Of a stretch of DNA of 61,822 bases, positions 9,293 through 51,118 are shown in pieces. Each line of letters starts with the position of its first letter. The stretch's first letter is position 1. The stretch covers positions 1 to 61,822 of the IMG/VR virus record IMGVR_UViG_3300032285_001570; one strand, given 5' to 3'. The DNA comes from a virus. Its lineage: Duplodnaviria; Caudoviricetes. The notes beneath the pieces are model-generated. The model had not been told where the DNA came from. It saw nothing but the letters and a program-made list of their open reading frames with translations, and ran no database searches. The translations under genes and the position numbers were made by a program.

Positions 9293-9304
9293 TACAGCAC
9301 CTTA

Positions 9305-9709: not shown

Positions 9710-9718
9710 GACTGCTCC

Positions 9719-10785: not shown

Positions 10786-12377
10786 TAGTTCACCGTATCA
10801 ATCAATGTCCAGTCGGTTGTTTCTGAGTTATCTATTAACACCCAACCCGAACTCTGCGCCGTATCAATCGCTGTCCAGTTAGCTGTTTCAGAATTATCTA
10901 TCAACCCCCAGCTAGAACTCTGCATATTGTCGATCAACAACCAGTTAGCAACCTGGGAATCGTCAATCAACTTCCAATAAATCGCTACTACTGTTCCTGC
11001 CGAACCGCTTGCAGCTACCCCGCTTAAGCCTACCGTGATCGAGGTTGATACACTTCCAACGCTACCTGTTGCTGCATCGCCGTTGATACCAATCTCGCCT
11101 TGGACCTTGCCAACTTGTCCTGCGGCGCTTACGCCACTTAGCGCGATTGTTATCGCAGATGTTACTGTCCCAACTTCACCAAAAGCTGTATCGCTAAGGA
11201 GTGGTACAGAAACATAACCCACTGCTCCGTTTGCTACCACACCAGTTAAGGCACACGCCTTCTCCGGTGTTACTGCTCCAACCAGACCAGAGCCATTAAC
11301 TCCTGTCAAGGCTACAGTCGCACTGACTGCAACCGTTCCAACTGCACCTGTTGCCACATCCCCTGAAACCATCGGGACGTAAACAACAGTTCCTACGCTT
11401 CCAGATGCACTGACACCGGTAATATCTACAGCCAAGTTAGCTGCAACATCACCGACTAATCCAGATGCAAGCACACCGGTGAGAGCAACCGACACACTCG
11501 GTGTTACAGCACCAACCAATCCAGAGGCTTCAACCCCCGTTAATGCTGCGGTGCTTTCTACCGTTACTGTTCCGACATTACCGCTTGCTACATCACCAGA
11601 GAACGGCAGTGCAACAACAGAGCCAACAGCACCTGATGCAGCAACCCCACTTAACGCAAACGAAGGGCTTGCAACCACTGAGTCAACTGCACCTGACCCA
11701 GCCACTCCAGAAATAGCCACTACCAAACTGGATGTGACTGTTCCTACCGAACCTGTTGCTTCATTACCAAACAGCGTTAGCTGTCGCTCTACTGTGTCTA
11801 CACTTCCGAACGCATCAACGCCCGTTAGGGCAACAACTATTTGAGAGGCTACTGTTCCAACAAGCCCAGAACCATCTACGCCAGTAATAGCAACGTCTTG
11901 CGCTGCCGTTACCGTTCCAACATTTCCTGCTGCAACTACACCGCTTAAAGCTATTGATAGGTTTGCAACCGCCGTACCAACAAACCCTGAAGCAACATCG
12001 CTGGTTAAACTCTCAGACCCTGTGCCTACAACCGTCCCAGCGAAACCTGATGCGTTTACACCAGTTAAAGCAACCGCTGAATTGGCTGCGACAGTTCCTA
12101 CCAATCCACTTGCGTTTACACCACTTAGTGCAACCGACAAGTTTGCTACTACTGTTCCTGCCGAACCACTTGCCTCTACACCAGTTAAAGCAACCGATGC
12201 GTTAACCGTACCAACATTACCAGCACCACTTACACCAGTCAGGGCGACAGTAATCGAACCCGTGACTGTACCTACAGCACCACTAGCCGCATTCCCTGTT
12301 AAAGCTACACTAACAACAGCGTTAGCACCCCCAAGTGATGCAAAAGGTGCTTCCGCGAATGCGGTTATCCCAAACAT
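10785..12377 (-). CDS. Repeat-rich fibrous virion protein (V/A/G/S/T repeats plus six 11-aa Trp repeats)
   Basis: Recurring VALTGVxASGxVGTV; C-terminal WxxIDxx repeats. Confidence 0.7.
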   Translation of the reverse strand: MFGITAFAEAPFASLGGANAVVSVALTGNAASGAVGTVTGSITVALTGVSGAGNVGTVNASVALTGVEASGSAGTVVANLSVALSGVNASGLVGTVAANSAVALTGVNASGFAGTVVGTGSESLTSDVASGFVGTAVANLSIALSGVVAAGNVGTVTAAQDVAITGVDGSGLVGTVASQIVVALTGVDAFGSVDTVERQLTLFGNEATGSVGTVTSSLVVAISGVAGSGAVDSVVASPSFALSGVAASGAVGSVVALPFSGDVASGNVGTVTVESTAALTGVEASGLVGAVTPSVSVALTGVLASGLVGDVAANLAVDITGVSASGSVGTVVYVPMVSGDVATGAVGTVAVSATVALTGVNGSGLVGAVTPEKACALTGVVANGAVGYVSVPLLSDTAFGEVGTVTSAITIALSGVSAAGQVGKVQGEIGINGDAATGSVGSVSTSITVGLSGVAASGSAGTVVAIYWKLIDDSQVANWLLIDNMQSSSWGLIDNSETANWTAIDTAQSSGWVLIDNSETTDWTLIDTVN

Positions 12378-32001: not shown

Positions 32002-32217
32002 ATGAAACCACAAGATATGCAAGAACTGAGCGACAAGGTCACAGCAATGCTGGGACATTTCAAATCAAAAGATGCAGTCACGTTTTTAAGTTTTTACATT
32101 GCGTACGTCTGTCAGCTATGCGGTCATTCTAAAGAAGTGGCAATCAATTTTGTCGCTAGCCGGATGGCAAGTGTGTACGACGAGGACGCACCACCACCCA
32201 AAGAAAAGCAGAACTAA
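32002..32217 (+). CDS. Early hypothetical protein
   Basis: AGGGGA RBS. Confidence 0.55.
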   Translation: MKPQDMQELSDKVTAMLGHFKSKDAVTFLSFYIAYVCQLCGHSKEVAINFVASRMASVYDEDAPPPKEKQN

Positions 32218-32218
32218 A

Positions 32219-32518
32219 ATGAAAAAATTAACGAAAGAGAAAATCGCAGTCCAGACCAAAGACCCTGAGCGTCCAATTATCCTGATCGACTGGCCGGAAC
32301 GCGCCCAGCTTGTCGATATGTATGGCTCACGGGTAAAGGGCGAAAAATTAGACGTCTATTGGAATATGATGATCATGCGCCGAGACGGGGAAACGCTCGA
32401 CACCATAGGACGGTTCTACGGTGTTAGCAAAGAGCGCGTGCGGCAGATTGAGCACGGATTTATCCGGCGGTGTGGGCAGTTTTATCAACGTACAATGACT
32501 GCTTCAAAACTTGGCTAG
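32219..32518 (+). CDS. Sigma-70 region-4-like HTH protein (start revised)
   Basis: ETLDTIGRFYGVSKERVRQIE. Confidence 0.7.
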   Translation: MKKLTKEKIAVQTKDPERPIILIDWPERAQLVDMYGSRVKGEKLDVYWNMMIMRRDGETLDTIGRFYGVSKERVRQIEHGFIRRCGQFYQRTMTASKLG

Positions 32519-35012: not shown

Positions 35013-35879
35013 TTACTTTTCGTATTTCTTTAGCTTCGCTTGCAGCGTTTTAACCAACTTCATCAACTCTGCATTGCGAGATTGAAACATATCGCGGCTG
35101 TCCCTCAAAGCCTTGTTGTCAATTTCCAAGACGCGGACGTGTTCGCGCAACTGATCCACGACTTCCTGAATATCAATCTTCTCGATTTCACTAGCGTCCC
35201 ACTGACCGATCGCAATTTTATCCCGCAGTAGTTTGTTCTCTCTATCCAACTCGTTGATTGTTTCCACCAGCTCTTCGACTTTGTCATCGTAACCACCTTC
35301 TTCTGGCGCAGCGGATGATGGCTCCTCGATGGTCTGTGACTCTGCGTTCTTTTGCTTTGACTCTGTATTTTTCTTCTTGCCAATGTTCTTTGTTTCCATC
35401 TGAACTTCTTGGCCGTTCTTGCTGTATGTGCGCTTGGTTTCTGCCTGCGGTTCTAGCGCCTTCTTGATGCGACCGACGGTCATCATCGAGACACCAACGT
35501 GGCGAGCAATCTCAGCGTTGCTCCACTTACTCCACTTCGGATGCTTCAGCATTCTGTCAACGATGTTTCTTTTGTCTGCTGCTGATAGCGAAAGACCGCG
35601 TCGTCCGTTGGCTGCATAGGCAAACAGAATCGCATCGTCTTGCGATCCCTCTCGCACCTCTGCTGCAATGTTTTTCTTGCCGATGTCTTTGGTGGCGAAG
35701 TAACGGTGGAACCCGTCAGCCAACCAGTGTGTAGCGCCATCGTAGAACACAACGATGGGAGGGAACTCGTCCCCATCCTGCATGTGCTCGGCGTACTCTG
35801 CAACTACCTCGTAGTCCACAGCCAAGCGAGCCTGCGTACCACCATCAATACGGATGTGATCAAGTCCTAACATTTTCAT
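35013..35879 (-). CDS. ParB/Srx-like protein with HTH and coiled coil
   Basis: FPPIVVF...LADGFHRY; WSNAEIARHVGVS..TV. Confidence 0.75.
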   Translation of the reverse strand: MKMLGLDHIRIDGGTQARLAVDYEVVAEYAEHMQDGDEFPPIVVFYDGATHWLADGFHRYFATKDIGKKNIAAEVREGSQDDAILFAYAANGRRGLSLSAADKRNIVDRMLKHPKWSKWSNAEIARHVGVSMMTVGRIKKALEPQAETKRTYSKNGQEVQMETKNIGKKKNTESKQKNAESQTIEEPSSAAPEEGGYDDKVEELVETINELDRENKLLRDKIAIGQWDASEIEKIDIQEVVDQLREHVRVLEIDNKALRDSRDMFQSRNAELMKLVKTLQAKLKKYEK

Positions 35880-35899
35880 TTTTATCTCCTAGCAAGTTA

Positions 35900-35928
35900 A
35901 GTCTAAATTTATTTTGTACCCATTGCAA
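35900..35928 (-). promoter_or_regulatory. Sigma-70 promoter for parB-helicase-primase operon
   Basis: TTGCAA-17nt-TAGACT. Confidence 0.55.
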
Positions 35929-36660
35929 TCAATCATTGTTGTCCCGTAAGTATTCTCCATGCTGTTGCTGCCACTGCTGGTACTTGTCCGTTTCCAATGG
36001 CTTTAGTCCTGTCCACCCTTGCGGCCACCCCATCATGTACTCCAGTACCGCGACTGGTGGGTACTGCCAGTTGCCGTTGTACGAGAAGTAACTCTTCAAG
36101 TCGTTCCTTTCTCCACGGCCTGCTGCCTTCATCCCCTCTAGACTGCGGCCTCCCTTGTAATCCGAAACCATCGGCGTCGGCAACGATCCAGATTCTTTTT
36201 CTTTTGTGTGGGGCGCCAACGTCGTCTGCTCCCAGCACTCCCCATCGCGCATCAAACCCCATTTCGGCCAAGTCTCCAAGGACTGTTCCGAGTCCCCGAG
36301 TAACGAGCATTGGGGAGTTTTCCAAGAAGACGTATCGCGGTCGTACTTCGCGAATGACGCGCGCCATTTGTCCCCACATTCCACTGCGCTCTCCTTTGAT
36401 GCCGGCTCCTTTACCGATGACGCTGATGTCTTGGCAGGGAAACCCTCCAGATACAACGTCAACAATTCCTCGCCACGGTCTGCCATCAAAGGTTTGCACG
36501 TCATCCCATACTGGGAAAGGCGGGAGAACGCCTTCATTTTGTCGGGCGATAAGTACGCTTGCTGGGTATGGTTCCCACTCGACAGCGCACACTGTTCTCC
36601 ATCCGAGGAGATGCCCTCCGAGTATGCCTCCACCAGCGCCTGCGAAAAGAGCCAGCTCAT
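35929..36660 (-). CDS. C5-MTase beta subunit (TRD/motif IX) in alternative frame
   Basis: 243-codon frame open across alpha; LPTP.VSDYKG and LEYMMGWPQGWT (motif IX-like). Confidence 0.7.
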   Translation of the reverse strand: MSWLFSQALVEAYSEGISSDGEQCALSSGNHTQQAYLSPDKMKAFSRLSQYGMTCKPLMADRGEELLTLYLEGFPAKTSASSVKEPASKESAVECGDKWRASFAKYDRDTSSWKTPQCSLLGDSEQSLETWPKWGLMRDGECWEQTTLAPHTKEKESGSLPTPMVSDYKGGRSLEGMKAAGRGERNDLKSYFSYNGNWQYPPVAVLEYMMGWPQGWTGLKPLETDKYQQWQQQHGEYLRDNND

Positions 36661-36664
36661 TCAC
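35933..36664 (-). CDS. C5-cytosine DNA methyltransferase alpha subunit
   Basis: FAGAGG (I), GGFPCQDIS (IV), ENS (VI), HKRKRIW (VIII), AIGNGQVP (X); lacks motif IX. Confidence 0.9.
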   Translation of the reverse strand: MNELALFAGAGGGILGGHLLGWRTVCAVEWEPYPASVLIARQNEGVLPPFPVWDDVQTFDGRPWRGIVDVVSGGFPCQDISVIGKGAGIKGERSGMWGQMARVIREVRPRYVFLENSPMLVTRGLGTVLGDLAEMGFDARWGVLGADDVGAPHKRKRIWIVADADGFGLQGRPQSRGDEGSRPWRKERLEELLLVQRQLAVPTSRGTGVHDGVAARVDRTKAIGNGQVPAVAATAWRILTGQQ

Positions 36665-36694
36665 AATTTCCCTTCCTGTGATGTCATCAGGTGT

Positions 36695-36724
36695 ATCGTA
36701 TCCCTGTCATCTGCTATATGTCAA
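36695..36724 (-). promoter_or_regulatory. Sigma-70 promoter for MTase
   Basis: TTGACA-18nt-TACGAT. Confidence 0.55.
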
Positions 36725-36984
36725 GTAAAAATAAAATCCCCAAGGGGTGGAAGCAAGCCCACAACCCAACCCAGACAACCCCAACACAACAGGGGGAGCC
36801 CCAGTTACCCATGAGGCAGCGATTCATTCACTAAGCGCCTTGTCCCACCGCTTTGCGCTTAGCTACTCCAGTCCCTCGCTGACAGGCTGGAACCACAACC
36901 GGGGGTGTAACGGCATGGTGTCTTTTCTTCCGAGCCACCGATTCAGGTGCGCTGCTATCGTGCGGAGTACGGCTCAGGAAAAGC
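36725..36984 (-). ncRNA. Candidate structured non-coding RNA with G-tract tail
   Basis: No convincing CDS; several local and long-range helices; four G-tracts at 36758-36782. Confidence 0.45.
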
Positions 36985-37077
36985 AAAACCCCATCACGGC
37001 TGGGCTTCAGGCTGCGGTGGAAGAGACGAATGTAGAACCAGGGGTCTCGACAACCGAAGCCCATGCGTCATGGGGTT
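36985..37077 (-). ncRNA. C4/CI-like antisense RNA
   Basis: Closing stems AACCCCAUGACG/CGUGAUGGGGUU and UGGGCUUC/GAAGCCCA; inner segments complementary to own leader. Confidence 0.6.
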
Positions 37078-37137
37078 CGTGGTTCTTCACATTCATCGCG
37101 CTTCCACACGCGGCCGGTCTTTTTCCCGAACGATTTG

Positions 37138-37167
37138 ATTCTAGGTGATACGTCCTGACAATGTCAA
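37138..37167 (-). promoter_or_regulatory. Sigma-70 promoter for C4-like transcript
   Basis: TTGACA-18nt-TAGAAT directly after a terminator. Confidence 0.65.
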
Positions 37168-37262
37168 CAAAAAAAACCCCCTGATCGCGAAATCAGAGGG
37201 TTAAGGCATCGTAATGCCAAGGAGTAAGCCAGTCCTACAACCACTGCTAGGAGGAATAGGAC
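37168..37262 (-). ncRNA. About 95-nt anti-Shine-Dalgarno sRNA ending in an intrinsic terminator
   Basis: Promoter TTGACT-18nt-TATAAT (37269-37298); hairpin loop with CUCCUAGCAGUGG; terminator CCCUCUGAU-UUCGCG-AUCAGGGGG plus U-run. Confidence 0.65.
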
Positions 37263-37284
37263 AGCCGGATTATAGAAGCCTGTA

Positions 37285-37581
37285 TCAATCACAGTCAATC
37301 TTAAGCAATCCGCGATCAAACAGCCACCCAATCGTGGCTCGATGCCCATCCTCCCAAGCCTGACGGCGCTCATCCTTCGTCATCTTGGAGCCCTGGTCAA
37401 TCTCGTGGTGACACCTGTAACACAGATAAGCCACGCGATAGTCGTGCGCCTTGATACCAAAGCCCTTCCCATCCCGCTGCTGATTTGAATGGGCGGCCAC
37501 AATCGTCTTGTCATCCGCACCACACAGCTGGCACGGCGAGTCCTTGGCTGCACGCAGGATCTTGGCGTTCCGGTAATTCAT
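37285..37581 (-). CDS. DUF1364/HNH-like Zn-binding nuclease-fold protein
   Basis: CQLC...VAAHSN...GKG.GIK..D...AYLCYRCH. Confidence 0.7.
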   Translation of the reverse strand: MNYRNAKILRAAKDSPCQLCGADDKTIVAAHSNQQRDGKGFGIKAHDYRVAYLCYRCHHEIDQGSKMTKDERRQAWEDGHRATIGWLFDRGLLKIDCD

Positions 37582-37763
37582 TTACGAATCTTTTTGGGCA
37601 AGTCATTCTGTTTGTGCCGATTAATCCAAGAGAGCTGCGTCCTGTTGATGCATCCAAGACAGCGCCAGATCTTGCGCTTGCCACGAACTGTAGGCGTCAA
37701 CATAACAGCATCGTTGAACCTGCAGCTAGCGCATTTCTTTGGAGGTGGTTTTATATCCATCAC
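37578..37763 (-). CDS. Small Zn-finger protein
   Basis: CASC...CLGC; ATGA coupling. Confidence 0.5.
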   Translation of the reverse strand: MMDIKPPPKKCASCRFNDAVMLTPTVRGKRKIWRCLGCINRTQLSWINRHKQNDLPKKIRK

Positions 37764-37942
37764 ATGCGCGGCGTAGGATCTTCTAGGTCACCGATGAATC
37801 CCTTCAGCTCATCAGCCGTGTACTCTCCAGCCTCCAAGTAAATGGCGTCAGTTCTTTTCTGCCTAAGCATCGCCTCTTCGCGCTCATCCACCAGCTGCTC
37901 GATGTTCTTAATGGCCTGCATCAATTGATCTCTAGTCATCAT
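37760..37942 (-). CDS. Hypothetical protein
   Basis: AGGAG RBS; coupled. Confidence 0.55.
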   Translation of the reverse strand: MMTRDQLMQAIKNIEQLVDEREEAMLRQKRTDAIYLEAGEYTADELKGFIGDLEDPTPRM

Positions 37943-38324
37943 TCACTCCTATTCCGTGGGATTTTTCAATGGCGCGAGCAAAGTCATACCAAAACTCTGC
38001 GGATGGTCGAACACCGTGCGAGAACAAGCGGCGCAGCGCTTCTTTGCTCATAGGTTTTTGCTTCAGACTTTTGGCAAATGCCATCAGACCCTTGCGATCA
38101 AATGCAAGACCGCCCAGGCTGTGACGCTTGGCCAAAGCAATTAACTCATCTTCATTCATACATTTCCTTTTTGGTGGGGTGGGGGGATATGCAGATTCCA
38201 CGCCCCCCTCGTGGTTGAAAGGATGGCATGCACCCATGAACTTACTATCCCGTGGAGGCACATGCCGCTGTTTGAGATTTACATCTGCAAGGCGCCTCCT
38301 AACAGTTGTATGAATACCACGGGA

Positions 38325-38648
38325 CTAAGACGATGTTCCTCGTTTCGCACATGGGTAAGCCTGCTTCAGCGCGTTGACTACCAAGCTTTCCGCACTTAAG
38401 TGCCGGAGCGTTGGATTTATTTCTAAGTAGATTCGCACAATATCTTTTGTTTGACCAACGGTAATTGTTGACGGTGTGCAAAACAAAATCGTGTCACCCA
38501 TATCATGCACCCCAACAATGTATCCGTTCGCATACGACTGCCACAAATGCTCGTTGTTGTTAATGTGCTGTAGCAGTGTGTTGCCGCTTAAGAATCCGGC
38601 ATGGGCACTGGCTGATACAAGTAGCAATCCGGCGATGTATTTTTTCAT
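38325..38648 (-). CDS. Rap1a-like secreted immunity-family protein
   Basis: Signal peptide; GN.LL, YIVGVHD, FC.P...T.GQ...IV..YL..NP..RH..A..LV..AL..AYPC. Confidence 0.7.
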   Translation of the reverse strand: MKKYIAGLLLVSASAHAGFLSGNTLLQHINNNEHLWQSYANGYIVGVHDMGDTILFCTPSTITVGQTKDIVRIYLEINPTLRHLSAESLVVNALKQAYPCAKRGTSS

Positions 38649-38836
38649 GTGTTCTTATCCCTTGCTTCCATCTCCCTGATGTCGTTAGCAGCGTCAGCCA
38701 CGCCATGCCAATCCTTCTGCTTTACCTTGAGCAGCAGGTAAGCGATCATCACCTCGATGTCAGTCTGTGACGTTATTTTATCAAGCGATTGCTTAAAAAC
38801 TAAATACTCCTCAGCAGACAATTTGTTTTCATCCAC
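38645..38836 (-). CDS. Small conserved phage protein
   Basis: DWHGVADAANDIREME motif; probable GTG start. Confidence 0.55.
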   Translation of the reverse strand: MDENKLSAEEYLVFKQSLDKITSQTDIEVMIAYLLLKVKQKDWHGVADAANDIREMEARDKNT

Positions 38837-39461
38837 CGTTCTTCTCCCGCAGCTTGGCTTCGATGGCATTTATCCAATCAATTGGATCATCCAACAAAAT
38901 CTGTCGTTTTTCCTTCTCCGTCAGCCCAACCCATTCGCGTTTCTGTGGGGTAATGTAGAGAGGGATGTTTTTAGGATCATGCAATTTGATCCCGGTGTAA
39001 TAATGGACTTTTTCTTCTGAGGGTTTATTAAACGACAACAACTTGTCACCGTAGACTGTCAACTGCAACCACGCCACCGGCTCTTGCTTCTCTGCCTCTG
39101 CGATAGCTTGGCGTAAAGATGTGATGGCAGCATCTTGGTCTTGCTGAACCAGTGCGCCGATGATCTGTGACCGACCACGTTCCAAAGCCTCCAATGCTTG
39201 CTTCATTGTTTTGATGCTCATGTGCTTTCCTTTCTCACCCAACCCTTTTAGGTATGCTTGTGCTACGTTGTCAGACAGTTTTTTACCAAGTAAATACGCT
39301 TCTATTGCCGCTTCAGTTGCATAGTCCCATCGGGCTACGATGCGCACTATTTCTTGATGCTCTTGCGGGGTCAACATATCAGGCAAAGTTTTTTTGCCGT
39401 ACTGACATCCTTTGTTTTTAAGGTAACCGCAATCACCTCCGCATGATGGACATTGGCTCAT
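38829..39461 (-). CDS. Mosaic hypothetical protein
   Basis: MKQALEAL, QEPVAW, REWVGLT, AIEAKLREKN modules common in proteobacterial phages. Confidence 0.6.
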   Translation of the reverse strand: MSQCPSCGGDCGYLKNKGCQYGKKTLPDMLTPQEHQEIVRIVARWDYATEAAIEAYLLGKKLSDNVAQAYLKGLGEKGKHMSIKTMKQALEALERGRSQIIGALVQQDQDAAITSLRQAIAEAEKQEPVAWLQLTVYGDKLLSFNKPSEEKVHYYTGIKLHDPKNIPLYITPQKREWVGLTEKEKRQILLDDPIDWINAIEAKLREKNGG

Positions 39462-42239: not shown

Positions 42240-42923
42240 CTAAGAAAATTTGTTTTTAACTTCGGTGAACTTAGCCATCAGGGTCTTAAAGAAATCGGGA
42301 TCCACCTTCTTCACCGTGTCGAAGAGGATCTTGTTCTTCTTGAAGATCTGCATTACGTCATCGCTCGATGCGGCGTGTCCCAACGCTAGGTCAGCACCTG
42401 CCTCTACAGCAGCCAACCAACCTGCCTCTTCGCCATCAACGAGCTTGTTAACATTGATCTGCCATTCGCCTTCCATGCCCTCGATGCGGTCAGGGATGAC
42501 AGGTTTTGGCGCTGGCTTGACCTCAGCTTTGGGCTTCACCGGTTCGATAGCCCCTGTGGTTGAATCTAAAGCGTCGTGTTCAACGATTTCAAACGCGTTG
42601 ACCCACAGGTAGCGACGCAGGTAGCTCTGCACAGCGCCGAGATTCTGAACCTCGTGGCAGCCTTTCAGGGCGGCAGATGACATGGGTGATCCAAAGTTAA
42701 TGAACCCCTCGCCATCGGTGTCATAGATTGTCAGGGTGGCGTACTCGTGGTTAAAGCTGACCACGCCGCACAAACCGAGCTCGCCGCAGATCTTTTGAAT
42801 GGCCGGCATGAAGTCGGACAATTCAAAGTACTCGTAGCCGGCAAACTTGTTCTTGCCTGACTTAGTGAGTGGCATAGCCTGTAGTTTCAGGCGTGCCTCT
42901 TGGAGCTTCTTGTATACGTTCAT
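42240..42923 (-). CDS. erf: ERF-family ssDNA annealing protein
   Basis: KNKFAGYEYFELSD...QNLGAVQSYLRRY. Confidence 0.8.
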   Translation of the reverse strand: MNVYKKLQEARLKLQAMPLTKSGKNKFAGYEYFELSDFMPAIQKICGELGLCGVVSFNHEYATLTIYDTDGEGFINFGSPMSSAALKGCHEVQNLGAVQSYLRRYLWVNAFEIVEHDALDSTTGAIEPVKPKAEVKPAPKPVIPDRIEGMEGEWQINVNKLVDGEEAGWLAAVEAGADLALGHAASSDDVMQIFKKNKILFDTVKKVDPDFFKTLMAKFTEVKNKFS

Positions 42924-43798
42924 CAGTTACCTTTCTGTTGAAATTTGGACCACTGCTCGCAGCGGTGCTTGACTGGACAAAAATTAGCGCAGCGGACGCG
43001 CTCGCCTGGGCGCACTTCTATTTCATAGCCCTTGCCTGCTTTCTCTAGTGCATCTTCTGCATCCTCCTGCGTGTAGTGAACGGACTTGGCTCTGAGGCCG
43101 CCGGTCTTCTTGACCGCCCAGCTGGTGGGCTTTTCCCACATCTCCTCTTCCGTGCACAGCGGCATTGGTTGGTCTGTCTCCATCGCGAACTCACACTCGG
43201 AGTGCTTGGAGATCCTGTCCTGCACGAAACGCTGGCGCTCTTCGTACGACCACAGCTTGATCGGCAGCTCTTTGATTGGCGCCTCGGGGTAGCCCTCTTT
43301 ATTAGCGGCATCACGGCGGCTCCAGTCACGGATGATGGCCACGATGCCAACGTCTGTGACCTTGGTTTTCTTCACCGTCTCAACCAACCAAGCGTAGATG
43401 TTGAGCTGCTGCTCCCATTCGACCTTCTCGTTCATCACCGCCCACGCAGACGTGGTCTTGTAGTCGCGGATGGCGATGCCGTCCGCTTGGATGATCTGCA
43501 AGTCAATCGCGCCGGAGATATCCCAGCCATCAATGCTTGCGTGCAGACGCTCCTCGATGCGGTGGTTCTCGTCCTTGCCGTGCTCCAAGACCTTGTGCAC
43601 GGCGGTTCCAAAGATCGACCACACCATGTCGGCAACATCCTGCTCGATCTCGTCTTCAAACACTTTAGTCAACGCCACGATCTTCGGGCTATTGATTAAC
43701 TGTGTTACCGACAAGTGCGCCTTACCCTTGGTATAGGTAGGGCGCTGCAGAATGTTGACGAACGTCTGCGGTATGTTGTGTTTGTTGGTGAGCTTCAT
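42923..43798 (-). CDS. PD-(D/E)XK exonuclease (Cas4-like fold)
   Basis: GTAVH, E.RL, GAID, DYKTT, QLNIY, C..FC.V...C. Confidence 0.8.
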   Translation of the reverse strand: MKLTNKHNIPQTFVNILQRPTYTKGKAHLSVTQLINSPKIVALTKVFEDEIEQDVADMVWSIFGTAVHKVLEHGKDENHRIEERLHASIDGWDISGAIDLQIIQADGIAIRDYKTTSAWAVMNEKVEWEQQLNIYAWLVETVKKTKVTDVGIVAIIRDWSRRDAANKEGYPEAPIKELPIKLWSYEERQRFVQDRISKHSECEFAMETDQPMPLCTEEEMWEKPTSWAVKKTGGLRAKSVHYTQEDAEDALEKAGKGYEIEVRPGERVRCANFCPVKHRCEQWSKFQQKGN

Positions 43799-43980
43799 AG
43801 CGCGGACATGAGCTCATCAGACTCACGCTTGGTCTTCTCGTCCAACAAAGCGTACGCAATGTCGTACGACCAGCGCGCGATCTCGTACTTAGAGCTGCGG
43901 TGTGATTCTTCGTTGGTGACCATAGCCTGTGCTATCTTCATAGCGGCTTCGTCAACCCAAGTGGTTGTATTGACCATCAT
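43795..43980 (-). CDS. First gene of recombination operon, hypothetical
   Basis: AGGAG RBS; A..SY.IA.ALL motif. Confidence 0.6.
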   Translation of the reverse strand: MMVNTTTWVDEAAMKIAQAMVTNEESHRSSKYEIARWSYDIAYALLDEKTKRESDELMSAL

Positions 43981-44010
43981 GTTTTTTCTCCTAGCAGTGG
44001 ATGGGCAAGC

Positions 44011-44039
44011 ATTGTGGCAGGGTTTAAATCATATGTCAA
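44011..44039 (-). promoter_or_regulatory. Sigma-70 promoter for recombination operon
   Basis: TTGACA-17nt-CACAAT. Confidence 0.65.
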
Positions 44040-44074
44040 CAGGTTGTACCCATCTCCTCACACCTGTTGTATCG

Positions 44075-44464: not shown

Positions 44465-47400
44465 CTACATCCCAGCCTGTCTGCGTATCTGCTCAATGCC
44501 CTCAAGGATCTCGCCACGTATCTTCTGAAGATCGTTAATTTCCTTGCGCCGCTCACTTGGGGTGATGGTCTTGTCTACAGCGGTGCCGTAGAAGCGGATG
44601 GCCTGGTTGATTTCCTTGAATGCGTTGTCAACTTCATTAACGTAGTCGTGCATAGCAATCAGGTCTTCATTGGCATTGAGGTACTTGTCAAGCTCTTCAT
44701 CTTTTAGACGCTCTGCTTTGATCGTCATTGTTTTATACGCCTGATCAATCTCGCCCTTGAGATCGTAGAACAAGTCCTCGCGACCACGTGGCACTTCTGG
44801 GCGCAGGAACGCACCTATCAATGGATACTCTTTAGCCTGTACATCTGGACGTACGCCTGCCGCCTGACCCATAACATTGCTAGCCCACTGAGCCATAGCA
44901 CCAGCCGATCCAAAGATGGAGCGAACCAGATGGTCTGCCTCTATGGGATTCAGCAAACGATTCTTCTCTGTGCCAGTCAGCGCGGAAATCATTTTGCCAA
45001 ACTCAGATGTGGTCATCGTGTATTGCTCGGCAGGTTCCAGATCCTTCATCCCAGACGGAGTAATTTCTCGTCCGGAGAAGAAGCTATGGTTTAGACCAAT
45101 CTCAATGAACGGCTTGCCGGCAGCGGGAATGGGCTCGGGTCCAAGCAACATATCTCGTGCGGCCTCTGCAAGGGCGCGACGCAAGCGACGGTTATCGATA
45201 GGCGTCTGGGTGCTTTCCTTCATCACCTTGTTATAGATCATCTCAGGAATAGCTTTGAAGAAGTACGCAGCCGATGTGTTCATCGGAAGCATGATCTTCG
45301 TACCAGGAATCATAAAGTTGCGCAGCTTGGTCTGGTCATCCAGCTGGTTGTATTCATCATCGTCGCCAACAAGCATGCAATAAATCAATGTTGCAGACAC
45401 CATCAACGTGCCAGTAACCGCAAGTCTTTGCAGCGCTCTACTACGGCTAATTCCTTTTAGGCCGCCACCAGCTAATGCTTGGAACAGCACGTCAGTTGAG
45501 TTAGCCCATGCACCCATAAATGGGGCAGTCTTGACCAAGAACTGGGCAATCTGTCCAGAACCGTGGCGGTTAAAGTTGATGACGTTTGCTGCTTGATATA
45601 GAGCCTGAGCTTCATCACCAGTTTCTGCGAGCACACGCTTGTACGTGGCCACGCGCTGCGCCATATCTGAGGCATCGCCGATGTGGTCTAAACCGCGCAG
45701 CACAAAGCTAGCAACGTTGCGATTCATGATGCCTAGACGCTGCTTGATCTCAGCCTCTGGAGTGCGCGTTGGAGAGCGGAACCCAGCGATACCTGCAGAG
45801 TGAAGAATGTCTACAACAGGATCTGTTTTTGTCAACGATGTGACGAACCCTTTGTACACACCACCAATTAGCAGCGCTGGATTTTTCACTCCAGTAACGA
45901 TAGCTGCAGTAGGCGCATCTTTAAATACCTGCTTAATTTGGAACGCGCCAGACAGTGTGATGGTGCGACGAGTTAAGTTGGCAGCCGCTGCAAGGATCGG
46001 GATGGTCTTCAGGCCAAGCGTCTCCATGCCAAAGATTGATTCTGCAACCAAAGGATCTTGGATCTCTACGACAATCCTCTTGCCATTAGCGATAAAGTTA
46101 AACCGACCCTTGGCTGGATCAACCTTCGGAACCACCATGAGATTGCCGTTGGGCTCGCGTGTGGCGTAGTCTTTAACAATCCGCATCGCTGCGTACTGGC
46201 GCAATCCATTCATGGTCATACGCATGACGTTACGCGTCATGTTATCGATGACGTTTTCAATCTCTCGGTTGGTGTTAAATACCACCAAGTCTCCAGCTTT
46301 GATCGGCGCATGGATGGTCACTTCACCAGTTGGCGTGATGTCCATCTTGTCAGCAGGCACTGGTTTTCCATTGATCGTAGCCTTGATCACAGACGCAGGC
46401 TGGATCTGAAACTTCTTCTGTCCTGGTTCCGCAACGAAATCTGTAATCACCTTGGGCTTGCCGCGCTTGAATAATTTCTCCAAGCCGATGTTCGTCATCT
46501 TGCGAGTCGTGCTCTGCAATGGTGAATGCACATCTGCCGCGTCATCCATGATGCGGTTCCAAGGCACGTAGTCATCGATGGATGACAGCACTTGGTAGCG
46601 TCCCGGACTTAACAGGCCAACCTGCCTCCAGAAATTAAGCATGTTCTGGTTAACTGCAGTCCAGTTCTCCATGATTTCGCGAAGCTCTGGATGCACTTCC
46701 TCGCGGGCGATGAAGTCTGCAATCTCTTCATCGGACATATTGATCTTGGCATTTGCCACCTTGATTGCATCGAGGTCTTCAGCTGCATCTTCAAGCTCTG
46801 TGGTTACGCGCTTCAATTCTTTTGGATCAGGAGATGCTTGTGCCTTGAGCTTGGCCAACTCAGCATTGAGATCATCATATTGCTGGGTGCGCTTATACAG
46901 TTCATTCTGAATGCTGCGCGAACGCTTGGCCTCTAGGTAGGCTTGTATTAAATCTGTACCAACTTGATCACCAAGCATCTTCTTAAGCTTGATCTCTGCT
47001 TTGTATACGCCAGCCATTCCCTTGTCAGTTTTGACGGCGTTAAACGTCAACGTCTTGGGATCGTACTTGATGCCACCACGGAAGATTACTTCGGTCGCAA
47101 GCTGTGCACCACGAATAGCGTTGTCTAGCGCTACAGATGCAGTGGCGAATCCTTCGCTAGTGCGCAAGGCTCCGTTGTATTGCTTAAAGTCTGCAGCGTT
47201 AAGACCAGAACCAAACCACACATTTTTATTGCGTATGTAAGTAATGCCTTGTAGCAATTGATCCATCGTGTCTTTTGCTGTAGCTACTGGATGCATCACG
47301 GCATCTTTGAACAAGTCCTTGCTATAGCGGCCAGCACGCGTGATCGCAGTCAGCATTGGCGATGTATCTAGCTGCGGCGTATTGGGACGGTTGTACTTAC

Positions 47401-50400
47401 GCAGCATCCTCTCGTCGTCGCCAAGACTTAAGAACTTCTTTCCACGTTGCAGCATTGAGTCAGAAACAAATTGACCGTCTGCTGTGCTGAGGCTATTGAG
47501 GGCTTTGAGAATTGGCGCATCAGATTGCATGCCAAACAATCCCTTGATGCGTTGAGCAAAACTACCAAGCCAATTTTTAAGTCTGGTTAGTACGTTACCA
47601 TGCACAGCGGCATATTTACCTTCAACAATTCTTGAGCCATTCACCGCCCAAAATTCTGATGGGTTGAAGTATTGGTAATTTTGTTCTGCTGAAACATAGC
47701 CATTCGTTAATAGACCTGTGGCAATTTCTAGGCTGGATCTTTTGTCAGCTCCCTCAGGTAGACTCACCAATGTATCAAAGAATATTGCTTTCGCATCTTC
47801 TGGTATATCAAGATAACGATGATCATTTTTACCCAAATGGGCGTCCATTAACATCGCAAAGTACAATTTATCCGCAGGAATTTTTGCTTTTTTCTGAGCT
47901 GATACCAGCTGCTTTAGCCATTCCTTACGAATCGCCTCTTGCACGTTAGCAGGCATCATTCTTTCAAGATGATGCAAAATCTCGTGCACAACGGTATCGC
48001 CAGTATCACGCCCTTTCAACAACATAACAAGCCGAGTGATGGGGTTATATGTGCCAGCCGCAACGCTGCCTTGTCCGGGTTGGCGAATACCAATTCCAAG
48101 ATCATCAAGCAAAGCTGGGTTTTGCTGAATGAACCATTCTGCTAGATCCACTCCGTAGGCATCTAGCTCATCACGACGCTTGGCTTCAAGAAGTTTTTGG
48201 CGAATGTAATCTGCGCCACGCACGCGCGGCTTGACTGGCTTAGTATGCGTTGCTTTGTGCACTGTAAACACGGCTTCGCTAACTTTTGCAATAAACTGCT
48301 CGTTAGTGATCTTGCCAGCATCAAGACGGCGTTCCAGTGTCTCAAGTATGCGCTTAAGTGATGGCGAACGTTTTTGCTCTGTATCGTATGCAGTTGGTTG
48401 CGGTCTACGTATAGAAGCAAACATGTCTGGACCGGCTGGTTCTTCAACCTGTTGCGGCTCTTCAACGGCAGGCTTACGGCCCTCTCTAATCTCGGCAATT
48501 AATTCTGGGTTTGTGGACCATTTATCCCATGCGGACTTGAGTTGCTTCAGCTCATCGATGCGACGCTTAATGGCATCTGGATCTTTAACATCAATGCCTT
48601 CTGCTTTGGCAATCGCTGGGTTCTTAGCTGCGCCGCTGATCGCAGACAGACGTGTTTGAATCTCGCGCTGTTTGCTAGACGCAGCCTTGGCCATGTCATC
48701 TGCCTCACGCATCGCGCTATCGTCAAAGTCAAACATGTCAGTGGTGGTGTCGCTCTCACCAGCAAGCGCCTTCACAGCCTGCATCGTGTTCACGGCCATG
48801 TTCATCGACTTGCCGTCTGCGATTGCTTTTAGTCCAACAGACTGAAGGCGCGCATCGTTCGGAGCATTCAGCGCTACATAGTAGGCGGCTTCATCCCCGA
48901 TTTGGTCGTTACGAACGGCGGCAATGAGTTCGTCGCTGCCTTGATTTGCGATTGTGAAAGACCGCTTTCCCGTAGCCCTTGCCAGAAGTCCTTTTGACTC
49001 GGCTGTGTCGCGGTCGATGCCGGCTTCTTTGAAGTAGTTAACATAGTCTTTTACCTTGCCTTGTCCGTCACGGATGTTTAACTCTGCATCTAAGATGGCA
49101 GCCTGTACTCGGTCAAATCCTTTTGCCTCGTCGTGTATCTGCGCTGGTATGGTTGTTTCTCCACTGCGCTGCGCCAAGTCAAGGCGATGACGCCCAGAGA
49201 TCACCTCTAGCGATCCATCTAAACGACGCCATACTTGGATCGGCGCTACACCTGTGCGCTCAAACTTTCCACCAAGCGGCTCAACAACACCCTTTTCAGA
49301 TGCGCCAAGCTTGAACTGCGGCACATCTTTAGAAAGCTTTAAATCTTGAACAGGCACTTCCTGTATTGGCAGCCCTTGCGCTTCATGCTGTGGCGCTGCT
49401 GGCTCTTGCACTGCAGGCTGCTGGATAGCGGGCGGTGCGGCAGGTGTTGTTGGCAACGCAGCGGCAGCTGGTGTTTCTGTGGGCGCGGCAGGAGCGGCTT
49501 CTGGCTCTGCAAATAAATCAGCTGTGGTCACCATGCCCGGTACAGCCTCGGGCTCCTTCACTGCAGCAGGCGCTGTAGCTGCAGGTTGTTCAGCAGCCTG
49601 GGCGCCAACAACCGTTGGGATCGGTGCGGGTGTTTCTACAGTCTTGCGCTCAAGCGGTGGCCCCGCTTCTTCGCCTTCTGGGCGCGCAAATCCTGCACGC
49701 TCAAGCATCAAACGTGACATGCCTTGATAGCTGGTGTCAGGCTTGTAGCCTTTGCTCTCAAATAACTTCGCTGCTGTCTGCGCTGCCTTTGCTCCACCGG
49801 AAACAGTGGCTGTGGTAACGCCAGCCTGCAACACAGTCTGACGCAGCGTTTCCTCAAGCTCTTTGTACAGATCCACCAAGCTTGGATTGCCCTGCGTCCC
49901 AATACCAGGTAGCGCATCAATCCCATACTGGGTTAACGTGGTGGCCATCTCAGATGGGATCTCTGATGCAATAGACTTTGCAACGTATTCTGGGATTCCA
50001 TCAACGCCATTTTTGGCTACAAATCCCTTGAGCCCAGCTAACGCTTTGGTCATACCAAAACGCTCAAAGAAAACTTCAGCGGCTGCCATAGGCACTGCGC
50101 GTGTGGCGGCAACAGCCCCTGACAATCCTGAGGCACGCCCTTCGCCATACGAGTCGCCAAACTGTTGAAGCGCGGCCTGTGCTAGCACAGGTCCAGCTGT
50201 GCCTGTTAACGCGCTCAAAGCAATTGTTGGCGCCTGACCAGCCAAGCTTGTCATCGCATGTTGCGCTGATCTTTCAAATATCGTATTGCCTTCAGGAATG
50301 GCCTGCTCTCTAGCTCCCTCGATGCGGCGTGCATTACCCAAACGGACGCTCGTCTCTCGGTCACCAAGCAGATCCGCTGTTGCTTGCGCCAACCCAAGAC

Positions 50401-51118
50401 CAGACTTTGCGTATTGCGATGCAGCACCTGCACCAACACGCTCCCAGAATCCTGCGTTCTCAAGTTCCTCGGCGCGCTTCTGTGCTTCAGCCGCCGCCTT
50501 CTCTCCAACAACGTCAGCTTCCATCTGCTGCAGGTCAGGGAACACAGTGCCCGATAGCGCCTGTGTTTGAGCGTAGCTTTCTGCAAACTCTGGGCGTAAG
50601 CCTTGTTTGATAAATCGACGACGCTGTGCCTCTAGTCGCGTATCGGTCGCCTTCTGTATCGTCTCAGGTGCGGCGTTTAACTTTGCATAACGCTGCTCGA
50701 TCACGCGCGCGGCACGTCCGTACGCATCAGGGCTTTGCTTAATCTTTTCTAACGCTGCAGCTCGCTGGTCTGCTGGTAATGAATCCAGTTGCGCTTGCAC
50801 GCTCGTAATGAAGCGAGGATTCAACATCGGATCTTCTGGCACACCAGCGGTCTTCGCCGGCACATTCATCACCGATGGAGCCTCCGGCGTTGCTACCGGA
50901 ACGTCAAGACCAGCAAACGTATTGGTGTCAGGAACGATGGGCGCAGCAGGCTTAGCAATCGCGGGAGCAGCAGGAGTGGCAGCAGCAGGCGCAGCTGTTT
51001 CAGCAGCTGGCGCAGCGGGCTCTTGACTACCTAGATAATTCAGGATTTTTGCTTTTGCTGCCGCCGGATCCGTTTCTGAAAGATCGTAATGTTTACCTTG
51101 GTATTGGTAAATGGGCAT
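44465..51118 (-). CDS. Large polyvalent ejected protein (ParB-like, HExxH metallopeptidase-like, LPD38-like C-terminus)
   Basis: IQVW...ISGRHR; VVHEILHH; INF.R.G...PF; last and largest gene of ejection cluster. Confidence 0.75.
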   Translation of the reverse strand: MPIYQYQGKHYDLSETDPAAAKAKILNYLGSQEPAAPAAETAAPAAATPAAPAIAKPAAPIVPDTNTFAGLDVPVATPEAPSVMNVPAKTAGVPEDPMLNPRFITSVQAQLDSLPADQRAAALEKIKQSPDAYGRAARVIEQRYAKLNAAPETIQKATDTRLEAQRRRFIKQGLRPEFAESYAQTQALSGTVFPDLQQMEADVVGEKAAAEAQKRAEELENAGFWERVGAGAASQYAKSGLGLAQATADLLGDRETSVRLGNARRIEGAREQAIPEGNTIFERSAQHAMTSLAGQAPTIALSALTGTAGPVLAQAALQQFGDSYGEGRASGLSGAVAATRAVPMAAAEVFFERFGMTKALAGLKGFVAKNGVDGIPEYVAKSIASEIPSEMATTLTQYGIDALPGIGTQGNPSLVDLYKELEETLRQTVLQAGVTTATVSGGAKAAQTAAKLFESKGYKPDTSYQGMSRLMLERAGFARPEGEEAGPPLERKTVETPAPIPTVVGAQAAEQPAATAPAAVKEPEAVPGMVTTADLFAEPEAAPAAPTETPAAAALPTTPAAPPAIQQPAVQEPAAPQHEAQGLPIQEVPVQDLKLSKDVPQFKLGASEKGVVEPLGGKFERTGVAPIQVWRRLDGSLEVISGRHRLDLAQRSGETTIPAQIHDEAKGFDRVQAAILDAELNIRDGQGKVKDYVNYFKEAGIDRDTAESKGLLARATGKRSFTIANQGSDELIAAVRNDQIGDEAAYYVALNAPNDARLQSVGLKAIADGKSMNMAVNTMQAVKALAGESDTTTDMFDFDDSAMREADDMAKAASSKQREIQTRLSAISGAAKNPAIAKAEGIDVKDPDAIKRRIDELKQLKSAWDKWSTNPELIAEIREGRKPAVEEPQQVEEPAGPDMFASIRRPQPTAYDTEQKRSPSLKRILETLERRLDAGKITNEQFIAKVSEAVFTVHKATHTKPVKPRVRGADYIRQKLLEAKRRDELDAYGVDLAEWFIQQNPALLDDLGIGIRQPGQGSVAAGTYNPITRLVMLLKGRDTGDTVVHEILHHLERMMPANVQEAIRKEWLKQLVSAQKKAKIPADKLYFAMLMDAHLGKNDHRYLDIPEDAKAIFFDTLVSLPEGADKRSSLEIATGLLTNGYVSAEQNYQYFNPSEFWAVNGSRIVEGKYAAVHGNVLTRLKNWLGSFAQRIKGLFGMQSDAPILKALNSLSTADGQFVSDSMLQRGKKFLSLGDDERMLRKYNRPNTPQLDTSPMLTAITRAGRYSKDLFKDAVMHPVATAKDTMDQLLQGITYIRNKNVWFGSGLNAADFKQYNGALRTSEGFATASVALDNAIRGAQLATEVIFRGGIKYDPKTLTFNAVKTDKGMAGVYKAEIKLKKMLGDQVGTDLIQAYLEAKRSRSIQNELYKRTQQYDDLNAELAKLKAQASPDPKELKRVTTELEDAAEDLDAIKVANAKINMSDEEIADFIAREEVHPELREIMENWTAVNQNMLNFWRQVGLLSPGRYQVLSSIDDYVPWNRIMDDAADVHSPLQSTTRKMTNIGLEKLFKRGKPKVITDFVAEPGQKKFQIQPASVIKATINGKPVPADKMDITPTGEVTIHAPIKAGDLVVFNTNREIENVIDNMTRNVMRMTMNGLRQYAAMRIVKDYATREPNGNLMVVPKVDPAKGRFNFIANGKRIVVEIQDPLVAESIFGMETLGLKTIPILAAAANLTRRTITLSGAFQIKQVFKDAPTAAIVTGVKNPALLIGGVYKGFVTSLTKTDPVVDILHSAGIAGFRSPTRTPEAEIKQRLGIMNRNVASFVLRGLDHIGDASDMAQRVATYKRVLAETGDEAQALYQAANVINFNRHGSGQIAQFLVKTAPFMGAWANSTDVLFQALAGGGLKGISRSRALQRLAVTGTLMVSATLIYCMLVGDDDEYNQLDDQTKLRNFMIPGTKIMLPMNTSAAYFFKAIPEMIYNKVMKESTQTPIDNRRLRRALAEAARDMLLGPEPIPAAGKPFIEIGLNHSFFSGREITPSGMKDLEPAEQYTMTTSEFGKMISALTGTEKNRLLNPIEADHLVRSIFGSAGAMAQWASNVMGQAAGVRPDVQAKEYPLIGAFLRPEVPRGREDLFYDLKGEIDQAYKTMTIKAERLKDEELDKYLNANEDLIAMHDYVNEVDNAFKEINQAIRFYGTAVDKTITPSERRKEINDLQKIRGEILEGIEQIRRQAGM

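Follow-up and report, generated by a model that had tools for sequence, protein, structure and literature searches.

Does the short promoter- and terminator-bearing unit that follows the early gene block of this phage encode a small RNA (sRNA), and would such an RNA act in trans on the phage's own mRNAs? A sequence-only reading of the locus had proposed that it does, with the loop of a hairpin masking the Shine–Dalgarno (SD) sequences of both DNA-metabolism operons. The window, i.e., the whole stretch of DNA that was analysed (61,822 nt), represents an apparent tailed phage of ~60 kb in which nearly every gene lies on the minus strand, and it is laid out as follows.

61.8–44.5 kb: structural genes
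44.0–37.3 kb: early block, comprising orf61, a PD-(D/E)XK exonuclease gene, ERF, small genes and an HNH/YbcO-like gene
42923..43798, minus: PD-(D/E)XK exonuclease
42240..42923, minus: ERF
37285..37581: HNH/YbcO-like gene, the last codons of which contain the −35 box of the sRNA promoter
37.3–36.7 kb: RNA region
36.7–32.4 kb: C5-methylase, ParB-like gene, helicase and primase
35013..35879, minus: ParB-like gene, which heads the helicase/primase module
Beyond the helicase/primase module: a short plus-strand cluster, then terminase and portal

The open reading frames (ORFs) scanned, a subset of those in the window, include no integrase or repressor, and the phage and its relatives are apparently virulent, uncultured and aquatic. 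The closest protein relatives among GenBank phages are distant, with at most 40% identity for the ParB-like protein; TerL is ~55% identical to TerL of Pelagibacter phage HTVC027P. Searches of GenBank phages returned no DNA match to positions 36000–39000, nor to positions 36730–37300 in distant mode.

Anatomy and conservation of the predicted sRNA gene

The promoter, the GUCCUA/UAGGAC hairpin with its loop-displayed seed, the ACUCCUU motif, the small hairpin and the terminator named in the sequence-only reading are all present on the minus strand:

37298..37269, minus: predicted promoter TTGACT-18-TATAAT, with 11 of 12 matches to the sigma-70 consensus
37262..37167, minus: predicted sRNA of ~96 nt with three hairpins, its start placed 7 nt past the −10 box and its end at the U-tract, both by inference
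37262..37232, minus: seed hairpin (predicted fold), a GUCCUA/UAGGAC stem closing the seed loop
37253..37241, minus: seed CUCCUAGCAGUGG, the first 8 nt of which are the family-invariant CUCCUAGC
37225..37219, minus: ACUCCUU, a second CU-rich motif that resembles an anti-SD and is unpaired in the fold
37218..37205, minus: small second hairpin GGCAU-UACG-AUGCC, 5 bp (predicted fold)
37202..37167, minus: intrinsic terminator with a 12-bp stem (37202..37175) and U8 (T8 in the DNA)

Read from 37262, the unit consists of GUCCUAUUCCUCCUAGCAGUGGUUGUAGGAC, a spacer containing ACUCCUU, the 5-bp hairpin and the terminator. The 95-nt unit folds at −33.2 kcal/mol (z = −3.6), and none of 200 shuffled sequences folds as well. 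No Rfam 15 family reaches its gathering score in the window, and a lax Rfam scan of 35800–37400 gave chance-level matches only, the best on the sRNA unit being anti-hemB (E = 1.5) and another, ctRNA RF00489 (E = 0.63; 36163–36207, plus strand), lying off the unit. The ACUCCUU motif, which had been taken for a second anti-SD targeting element, is complementary over 8 nt or more to no RBS in the window and is not retained as such; CU-rich second motifs are nonetheless visible in most relatives of the sRNA.

Relatives were gathered via the ParB-like protein, via the motif of a neighbouring conserved RNA and via a core-plus-terminator pattern, and 16 distinct variants, some only a few bases apart, were obtained from uncultured phages whose ParB-like proteins and helicases are 36–58% and 69–81% identical, respectively, to those of the window. 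In all 16 variants, a promoter with at least 9 of 12 matches and a terminator flank a hairpin that contains the invariant CUCCUAGC. Four different closing stems (GUCC/GGAC, CCAUGA/UCAUGG, UUUCCC/GGGAAA and GACC/GGUC) surround this invariant 8-nt core, indicating that the stem changes are compensatory, and in all nine variants folded, the core is predicted to be unpaired with a probability of 0.63–0.87. When a 9-sequence alignment was analysed with MAFFT/RNAalifold, the seed stem fell out of register and the terminator alone was recovered; the stems given here are those of single-sequence folds. The variants differ by indels and share only the 8-nt core without change, a non-coding pattern, and since the unit follows differing genes in different phages (e.g., L001/L006), it is more than the tail of the HNH gene. 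The earlier proposal of a free-standing small RNA gene with its own promoter, a loop-displayed seed and a terminator is thus supported at the level of consensus matches, and the predicted gene is conserved in 16 sequence variants. Of three sequencing runs with an uncertain RNA label, all contigs and probably DNA, one covers the sRNA locus, by way of a diverged relative.

A scan on the hairpin flanks (GTCC...GGACACCTCCTCG) returned mostly noise; a single one of its 113 new loci, L253, is a genuine family member, and its core is mutated to CUUCUAGC. Other phage groups (L141, L142, L146, L152 and L156) carry CUCCUAGC before a terminator, and no clear targets were found in them.

Two further RNA elements lie downstream of the unit:

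37167..37138: promoter of RNA2
~36974–36741: RNA3, 71–76% identical in relatives

The sequence-only reading had joined these to the sRNA as a three-RNA control island. Both downstream elements are real and conserved, the RNA3 motif occurring in at least 119 viral contigs; a recognisable upstream CUCCUAGC sRNA accompanies it in only 10 of the 80 examined, nothing ties the functions of these RNAs together, and the idea of an island is not upheld. In other phage groups (L016, L021, L035, L038 and others), CU-rich terminator-bearing units were also observed upstream of the third RNA.

Sites complementary to the seed in the window and in related phages

The candidate target sites and the elements around them are listed below.

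44053..44044, minus: conserved element ATGGGTACAA upstream of the early-operon promoter
44039..44011, minus: early-operon promoter TTGACA-17-CACAAT
44000..43988, minus: target 1, CCACUGCUAGGAG, an exact complement of the seed CUCCUAGCAGUGG that covers the SD of orf61 (43795..43980)
35928..35900, minus: promoter-like TTGCAA-17-TAGACT just before target 2, weak (8 of 12 matches)
35923..35914, minus: second copy of ATGGGTACAA, overlapping the promoter-like site before target 2
35894..35886, minus: target 2, UGCUAGGAG, which overlies the ParB-like SD; 9 nt are complementary, or 10 bp with an extra U-G pair

Both complementarities claimed for the seed were recovered. The 13-nt exact complement at the recombination-operon leader (44000–43988) is the RBS of the first gene and ends 7 nt upstream of the ATG of orf61, a 61-codon ORF that precedes the exonuclease and ERF genes, and the 9-nt complement at the parB RBS, TGCTAGGAG (35886–35894, minus strand), lies 6 nt upstream of the ParB-like ATG. 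The heptamer CTAGGAG occurs three times on the two strands of the 61.8-kb window, namely in the sRNA gene and at the two target RBSs, and the 13-mer CCACTGCTAGGAG has exactly two copies, one at 37241–37253 on the plus strand (antisense to the sRNA gene) and one at 43988–44000 on the minus strand. When up to two mismatches are allowed, five matches to the 13-mer are found in the window, compared with a mean of 1.15 in shuffled sequences, none of 100 of which reaches five. In a duplex scan of 85 crudely defined gene starts, the orf61 leader ranks first at −26.6 kcal/mol, ~4 standard deviations below the mean (−12.6; sd 3.4), and the ParB-like start ranks fifth at a modest −18.3 kcal/mol. The sRNA gene shares its strand with both targets, at distances of 1.3 and 6.7 kb.

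The −10 box of the early-operon promoter ends 16 nt before CTAGGAG, which makes for a very short 5′UTR. The 10-mer ATGGGTACAA precedes both target promoters and is found nowhere else in the window. A third near-match, CAACTGTTAGGAG (38296–38308, minus strand), was considered as a target and set aside, as no credible gene start lies behind it. In the plus-strand cluster at 28.7–32.5 kb, the RBSs have no complement to any of the three RNAs of 37.3–36.7 kb.

The target sites were then surveyed in 14 genomes or fragments, among which G004/G001 and G006/G013 are near-duplicates. In each of the 10 genomes that include the start of the early operon, the motif GCUAGGAG lies on the RBS of the gene that opens it. 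The operon opens with orf61 in the window and G011, with a 154-aa gene in G004/G001, and with the exonuclease (290 aa) in G002, G005, G006, G010, G012 and G013; where the exonuclease gene is the second gene of the early operon, it has no motif. The conserved candidate targets follow the position in the operon and not the identity of the gene. The motif is also present on 10 of 13 ParB-like genes (absent in G002, G013 and L253), never on ERF, HNH, primase or TerL genes, and on helicase genes in G002 and G003 only. Across the 14 genomes, with near-duplicates counted, 37 of the 52 CTAGGAG sites are located at an RBS.

The early promoter is conserved as well (ATGGGWA...TTGACA-17-nAnAAT) and ends 10–16 nt before the motif, which would give a very short leader with the sRNA site at its 5′ extremity; before the ParB-like gene, a weaker promoter-like site stands in the same geometry to the motif. 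The combination of the ATGGGTACAA element and the −35 box of the early promoter was found in at least 119 viral contigs. In G004 and G001, six and five small genes, respectively, on the other strand each carry ACCGCUAGGAG right after a terminator-like hairpin. The number of candidate targets ranges from two in the window to nine in G004. The regulon seems to be expanded in these two genomes, and the location of the ACCGCUAGGAG sites behind hairpins fits a site that would be recognised at the level of RNA and not an operator.

Co-variation between leader and sRNA words

The sequence-only reading had named seed–target co-variation in related phages as a check, and the outcome differs between the two targets: at the early leader, the paired words co-vary between lineages, and at the flanks of the ParB-like site, no co-variation with the sRNA was found among relatives. 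The leader base next to GCUAGGAG is U where the sRNA has A (7/7) and C where it has G (3/3), corresponding to ~2 independent switches. In 7 of 10 genomes, the duplex of the early leader with the genome's own sRNA has a better energy than the average over the other sRNAs (worse in G004/G001, tied in G002), and for the ParB-like site this holds in just 4 of 10; G008 has an A-C mismatch at the ParB-like site where its close relative G010 has a pair.

To avoid selection on the core, a further search was anchored on the early promoter alone and covered at least 119 stretches; for each locus, a terminator-bearing unit complementary to its own leader was sought on the same strand at +2.5 to +14 kb. 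The matches listed include 78 distinct leaders, of which 21 have GCUAGGAG, 10 have GCUAGGAA- or GCUAGGGA-type words, and the remaining 47 have other words, some of these being false promoter matches. Also among the matches listed are 13 distinct leader/sRNA pairs, 12 of them credible, with the sRNA unit at +6.0 to +12.5 kb and with promoters of 10–11 matches out of 12. In lineages other than that of the window, the words of the leader and of the sRNA have both changed and the pairing is preserved, as in CCACUGCCAACGGAG with CCUCUUGGCAGUGG. The word types (leader/sRNA) are GCUAGGAG/CUCCUAGC, UGAUUAACUGCUAGGAA/UCCUAGCAGGGUUAAUCA or UUCCUAGCAGUU, and CCACUGCCAACGGAGUCA/UGACCUCUUGGCAGUGG. The leader CUGAUUAACUGCUAGGAA forms 16 bp with a 2-nt bulge with the sRNA UCCUAGCAGGGUUAAUCA (L396 and L339), and 12 bp with the sRNA GGUUCCUAGCAGUU, in which the leader GGAA is matched by UUCC (L361). 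The leader CCACUGCCAACGGAGUCA occurs with the sRNA UGACCUC(U/C)UGGCAGUGG (L314 and L355); this pair is plainly homologous to that of the window, with the inner CUA/UAG swapped for CCAA/UUGG.

The mean duplex energy is −22.8 kcal/mol for a leader with its own sRNA (n = 12), −21.4 kcal/mol with an sRNA of the same type from another genome (n = 50) and −18.2 kcal/mol with an sRNA of a different type (n = 82), and for 8 of 12 leaders the own sRNA is better than every sRNA of a different type. Among representatives of the types, the native assignment is the best of the six permutations (−74.8 versus −65.4 for the next), and when the leaders are shuffled, the native energy is attained in 0, 1 and 0 of 500 trials. 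These comparisons involve word types that share sub-words, several rows that are near-duplicates and few independent events (~2 A/G switches and 3 word types), and the energies lend co-evolution of leader and sRNA a support that is real, if not overwhelming. A separate and ambiguous observation concerns CAACUUGGAGG-type leaders, for which a 9-nt complement is present in a terminator-bearing unit ~456 nt away on the other strand; one change is compensated (L320) and one is uncompensated (L318).

Proposed function, alternatives and relation to known systems

The observed anatomy, complementarity, conservation and co-variation make it fairly probable that the minus-strand segment 37262–37167 encodes a trans-acting anti-RBS sRNA that represses early operons; from them, we infer that the RNA is produced and pairs in vivo, as well as the repressive sign of the effect, its timing and its physiological role. 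In the proposed mechanism, the sigma-70 RNA polymerase of the host would transcribe the sRNA from the near-consensus promoter, and the RNA would fold with an 8–13-nt seed (CUCCUAGC, extended to CUCCUAGCAGUGG in the window) in a hairpin loop and end at the terminator. The seed would then pair with the extreme 5′ end of two phage mRNAs with short leaders and mask their SD, forming 13 bp with the first cistron of the early/recombination operon (orf61, exonuclease, ERF) and 9–10 bp with the ParB-like gene that heads the helicase/primase module. Masking of the SD would block binding of the 30S subunit and lower the translation of the first cistron, and probably also that of coupled downstream genes. 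The sRNA might thereby restrain the early functions in recombination and replication in a dosage-coupled or time-delayed manner, which is plausible because the sRNA gene replicates with the genome. Sigma-70 promoters of the early type precede the sRNA gene and its targets alike, an arrangement in which no simple on/off logic is evident.

That apparent co-expression from early-type promoters speaks for a reading in which the RNA pairs as described but has another outcome or main purpose: protection or processing of the leader (activation, stabilisation), an action directed mainly at mRNAs of the host by means of two or three CU-rich anti-SD motifs, or immunity against co-infecting relatives. 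Most variants do have one or two extra CU-rich motifs, some near the 16S 3′ end (CACCUCCUU in L001), without a specific phage match, and the words of leader and sRNA fall into diverged types, as is the case for immunity specificities. Against this, the SD itself is covered in every target, the simplest consequence of which would be repression, and the invariant part of the seed reaches past an anti-SD (UAGC) and is a specific match to phage leaders; an outcome of this kind is considered unlikely, though to be taken seriously. A bolder extension, which we offer as speculation and rate as less likely again, is that the leader word and the matching sRNA constitute a co-evolving "address code" in a large phage clade, with a common early promoter in at least 119 contigs and no fewer than three word types. 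Once one genome is inside a cell, its sRNA would silence the early recombination and replication operons of relatives that arrive later with the same word, amounting to RNA-based superinfection immunity with heteroimmune types in lytic phages that doubles as a replication-coupled self-brake, and the words would diversify because of escape from cross-inhibition.

The shared word could instead be a DNA operator, bound downstream of three promoters by a DNA-binding protein of the phage or host, with the RNA complementarity as a by-product. All three copies in the window do lie within ~25 bp downstream of promoter-like sites, and the second shared 10-mer, ATGGGTACAA, stands before both target promoters and is unique to them in the window; yet the copy in the sRNA gene is inverted relative to its own transcription in 16/16 variants, whereas the target copies are all in the sense orientation on an SD, and it is displayed in a loop with compensatory stems and followed by a terminator. 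Moreover, the duplexes of other lineages include G-U pairs and a 2-nt bulge, as expected of an RNA duplex and not of a repeated protein site, and in G004/G001 the word is found at internal RBSs behind hairpins and not at promoters, all of which renders an operator improbable. It would be more surprising still if there were no dedicated RNA gene at all, the hairpins and terminator being the 3′UTR end of the upstream early operon and the leader match a product of chance or a relic. Such a reading accommodates the position of the unit directly after the HNH-like gene, the overlap of the −35 box with the end of that gene, and a terminator that would also halt upstream read-through, but it conflicts with the promoter kept at 9 of 12 matches or better in every variant, including the unit behind other genes in L001/L006, with an exact 13-mer that exceeds all shuffles, with a core that is invariant while flanks, stems and neighbouring genes vary, and with leader and sRNA words that change together. 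Two further candidates were rejected: a type I toxin–antitoxin system and a cis-antisense copy-control RNA of the ctRNA/CopA type. In the former, the RNA acts on a small, hydrophobic toxic peptide whose gene usually adjoins or overlaps it, whereas the orf61 product is hydrophilic and acidic, its gene is 6.7 kb distant, and the targeted first gene is a 290-aa exonuclease gene in six relatives. In the latter, the RNA comes from the strand opposite the target leader, whereas the sRNA gene and its targets, 1.3 and 6.7 kb off, share one strand.

On the favoured reading of an anti-RBS sRNA, comparative evidence alone defines a candidate sRNA and its regulon in never-cultured phages, and the parts are small, i.e., a 96-nt RNA and two leaders of ~15–27 nt. 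If the reading is true, apparently lytic environmental phages throttle early recombination and replication genes by means of RNA, beyond proteins such as RegA; a phage regulon can carry an extended SD "word" as its mark; words of this kind diversify jointly with their sRNA; and types A (window), B (L396 or L361) and C (L314) provide a ready set of orthogonal sRNA/leader pairs for synthetic translational control.

Comparable strategies exist outside phages. RsaE/RoxS-type C-rich sRNAs of Firmicutes pair with SD sequences through loop-displayed C/U-rich motifs, and plasmid antisense RNAs (R1 CopA, ctRNAs) act as a dosage-coupled brake on replication by blocking leader translation; these systems are bacterial or plasmid-borne, the plasmid ones being cis-antisense, whereas the window sRNA is phage-borne and would act in trans. 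In phage T4, early mRNAs are shut down at their RBSs by the translational repressor RegA and by the endoribonuclease RegB, which cuts GGAG; these are proteins, whereas in the system proposed here an RNA would do that job. The c4 RNA of P1/P7, a further point of comparison, is cut out of the transcript that it regulates, and a covariance model for it is present in Rfam.

As described in parts of two sources, few phage-encoded regulatory RNAs are known, mostly from temperate coliphages (PMC12197685; bioRxiv 10.1101/2024.10.31.621285). In the first of these, the passages on P1/P7 present c4 (immI) as a trans-acting RNA of ~77 nt whose loop-displayed complements are thought to pair around the target RBS and block translation, and in which sequence differences define specificity types and heteroimmunity (PMC12197685). 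To that extent, c4 resembles the window sRNA in being a phage RNA that acts in trans by loop pairing at an RBS. The window sRNA has no sequence or structural homology to c4 (no Rfam 15 match); moreover, c4 is found in temperate phages, where it regulates an antirepressor, whereas the window sRNA has its own promoter and the orf61/exonuclease/ERF and ParB-like leaders as candidate targets. P22 sar, which interferes with initiation of ant translation, and lambda OOP, an antisense repressor, have their own promoter and terminator according to portions of the same sources (PMC12197685; bioRxiv 10.1101/2024.10.31.621285). They are encoded opposite a single target (a table in PMC12197685 lists sar as trans), whereas the window sRNA is trans-encoded with a short seed and several candidate targets. 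PreS/LPR1 of lambda and VpdS of vibriophage VP882 are portrayed, in sections of the second source, as trans-acting seed sRNAs of the lytic programme, and VpdS is reported there to regulate both host and phage mRNAs (bioRxiv 10.1101/2024.10.31.621285). In those sections, the main targets described for PreS and VpdS are host genes (dnaN, alaS); neither is homologous to the window sRNA, which is instead defined by a word shared with the leaders of its own phage's operons.

No description of the window sRNA was found in the literature searched; a published catalogue of 8,495 candidate structured RNAs from IMG/VR may list it or its neighbours in its supplementary tables (PMC10690425). The statement that no equivalent has been described for this phage type was too strong in view of P1/P7 c4, a trans-acting phage RNA with loops pairing around an RBS in the account cited above (PMC12197685). 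The predicted sRNA is set apart as a new RNA family because it has no Rfam match, comes from uncultured, apparently virulent phages and carries an extended-SD word tied to operon leaders; its proposed type of mechanism is one already known, and P1/P7 c4 is its closest known counterpart.

Non-coding elements downstream of the sRNA

Two further elements lie downstream of the predicted sRNA, between it and the ParB-like gene, and a short repeated sequence lies upstream of both leaders to which the sRNA loop is complementary.

36985-37167, minus strand: RNA2, a small unit with its own promoter and a terminator-like end
36741-36974, minus strand: RNA3, a conserved non-coding element
44044-44053 and 35914-35923, minus strand: the 10-mer ATGGGTACAA, upstream of both sRNA target leaders

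RNA3 was found in related viral contigs at L004 5671-5906, L005 2424-2684 and L001 5501-5706, with copies that are 71-76% identical. Its motif, GCCTGTYAGCGAGGGA, is present in at least 119 IMG/VR contigs, and among the matches listed, 115 full-length copies fall into 88 versions at less than 85% mutual identity. No Rfam family was matched by RNA3, and the consensus structure obtained with RNAalifold from a rough alignment is weak. RNA2 has a promoter of its own, TTGACA-18-TAGAAT (37167..37138, minus strand), and closes with the terminator-like end GGGGTTTTGCTTTT; the corresponding position in relatives is occupied by promoter-to-terminator units of roughly 100-150 nt, which occur in at least two sequence forms and many of which contain a long closing stem, GCCGTTAAG...CTTAACGGC.

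Exactly two copies of ATGGGTACAA are present in the window, one 5′ of each target leader, and the early-operon copy belongs to an element that is kept in relatives directly 5′ of the -35 box. This 10-mer may serve as an UP-like element or as the site of a regulator.

The methylase gene and other genes of the minus strand

35933-36664, minus strand: C5 cytosine methylase gene (PF00145, E = 7e-31)
38325-38648, minus strand: early gene with a Rap1a match (PF18602, E = 2.4e-18)
44465-51118, minus strand: 2217-aa ORF where the structural genes meet the early promoter

In the contigs of relatives, the sequence corresponding to position 35890 is joined to that corresponding to 36681, skipping the methylase gene, which has thus been inserted between the ParB-like gene and the RNA region. 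The window gene may itself be frameshifted or mis-sequenced, because the PF00145 match in its frame covers only profile positions 5-163 of 324, and further methylase-like motifs, as traced by eye, shift to another frame and then come back. The 2217-aa ORF had no PHROG match at E <= 1e-5. Rap1a is a family of type VI secretion immunity proteins, an unusual cargo in a phage early region.

Small-gene clusters on the strand opposite to the early genes

L007 (genome G004) 8700-11330, plus strand: small-gene cluster opposite to the early genes
L010 (genome G001) 7240-9530: small-gene cluster opposite to the early genes
Window 32099-32518, plus strand: ORF with a sigma-70 region 4 match (PF04545, E = 1.8e-6)

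The genes of the G004 and G001 clusters are small (40-191 aa), and in front of every one stands a GC-rich hairpin with a T-run, followed by ACCGCTAGGAG. In the window, the counterpart of these clusters, on the plus strand at 28.7-32.5 kb, carries similar hairpins but different RBS words, such as CCTAACCTAATCGGAGAA. At the end of this cluster stands the ORF at 32099-32518, which, judging by its profile match, may encode a small regulator of the phage, either sigma-like or related to anti-sigma factors.

Similar CU-rich units in other viral contigs

L142 6176, L146 3212, L152 955, L156 6068 and L141 4324: units bearing CUCCUAGC

The RNA3 motif was absent from the stretches of these contigs that were examined, and no clear targets of the units were seen within the short loci. 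In each unit, CUCCUAGC is followed by more CU-rich runs and then by a terminator, and the unit is located directly 3′ of a gene whose product ends in ...VWR.
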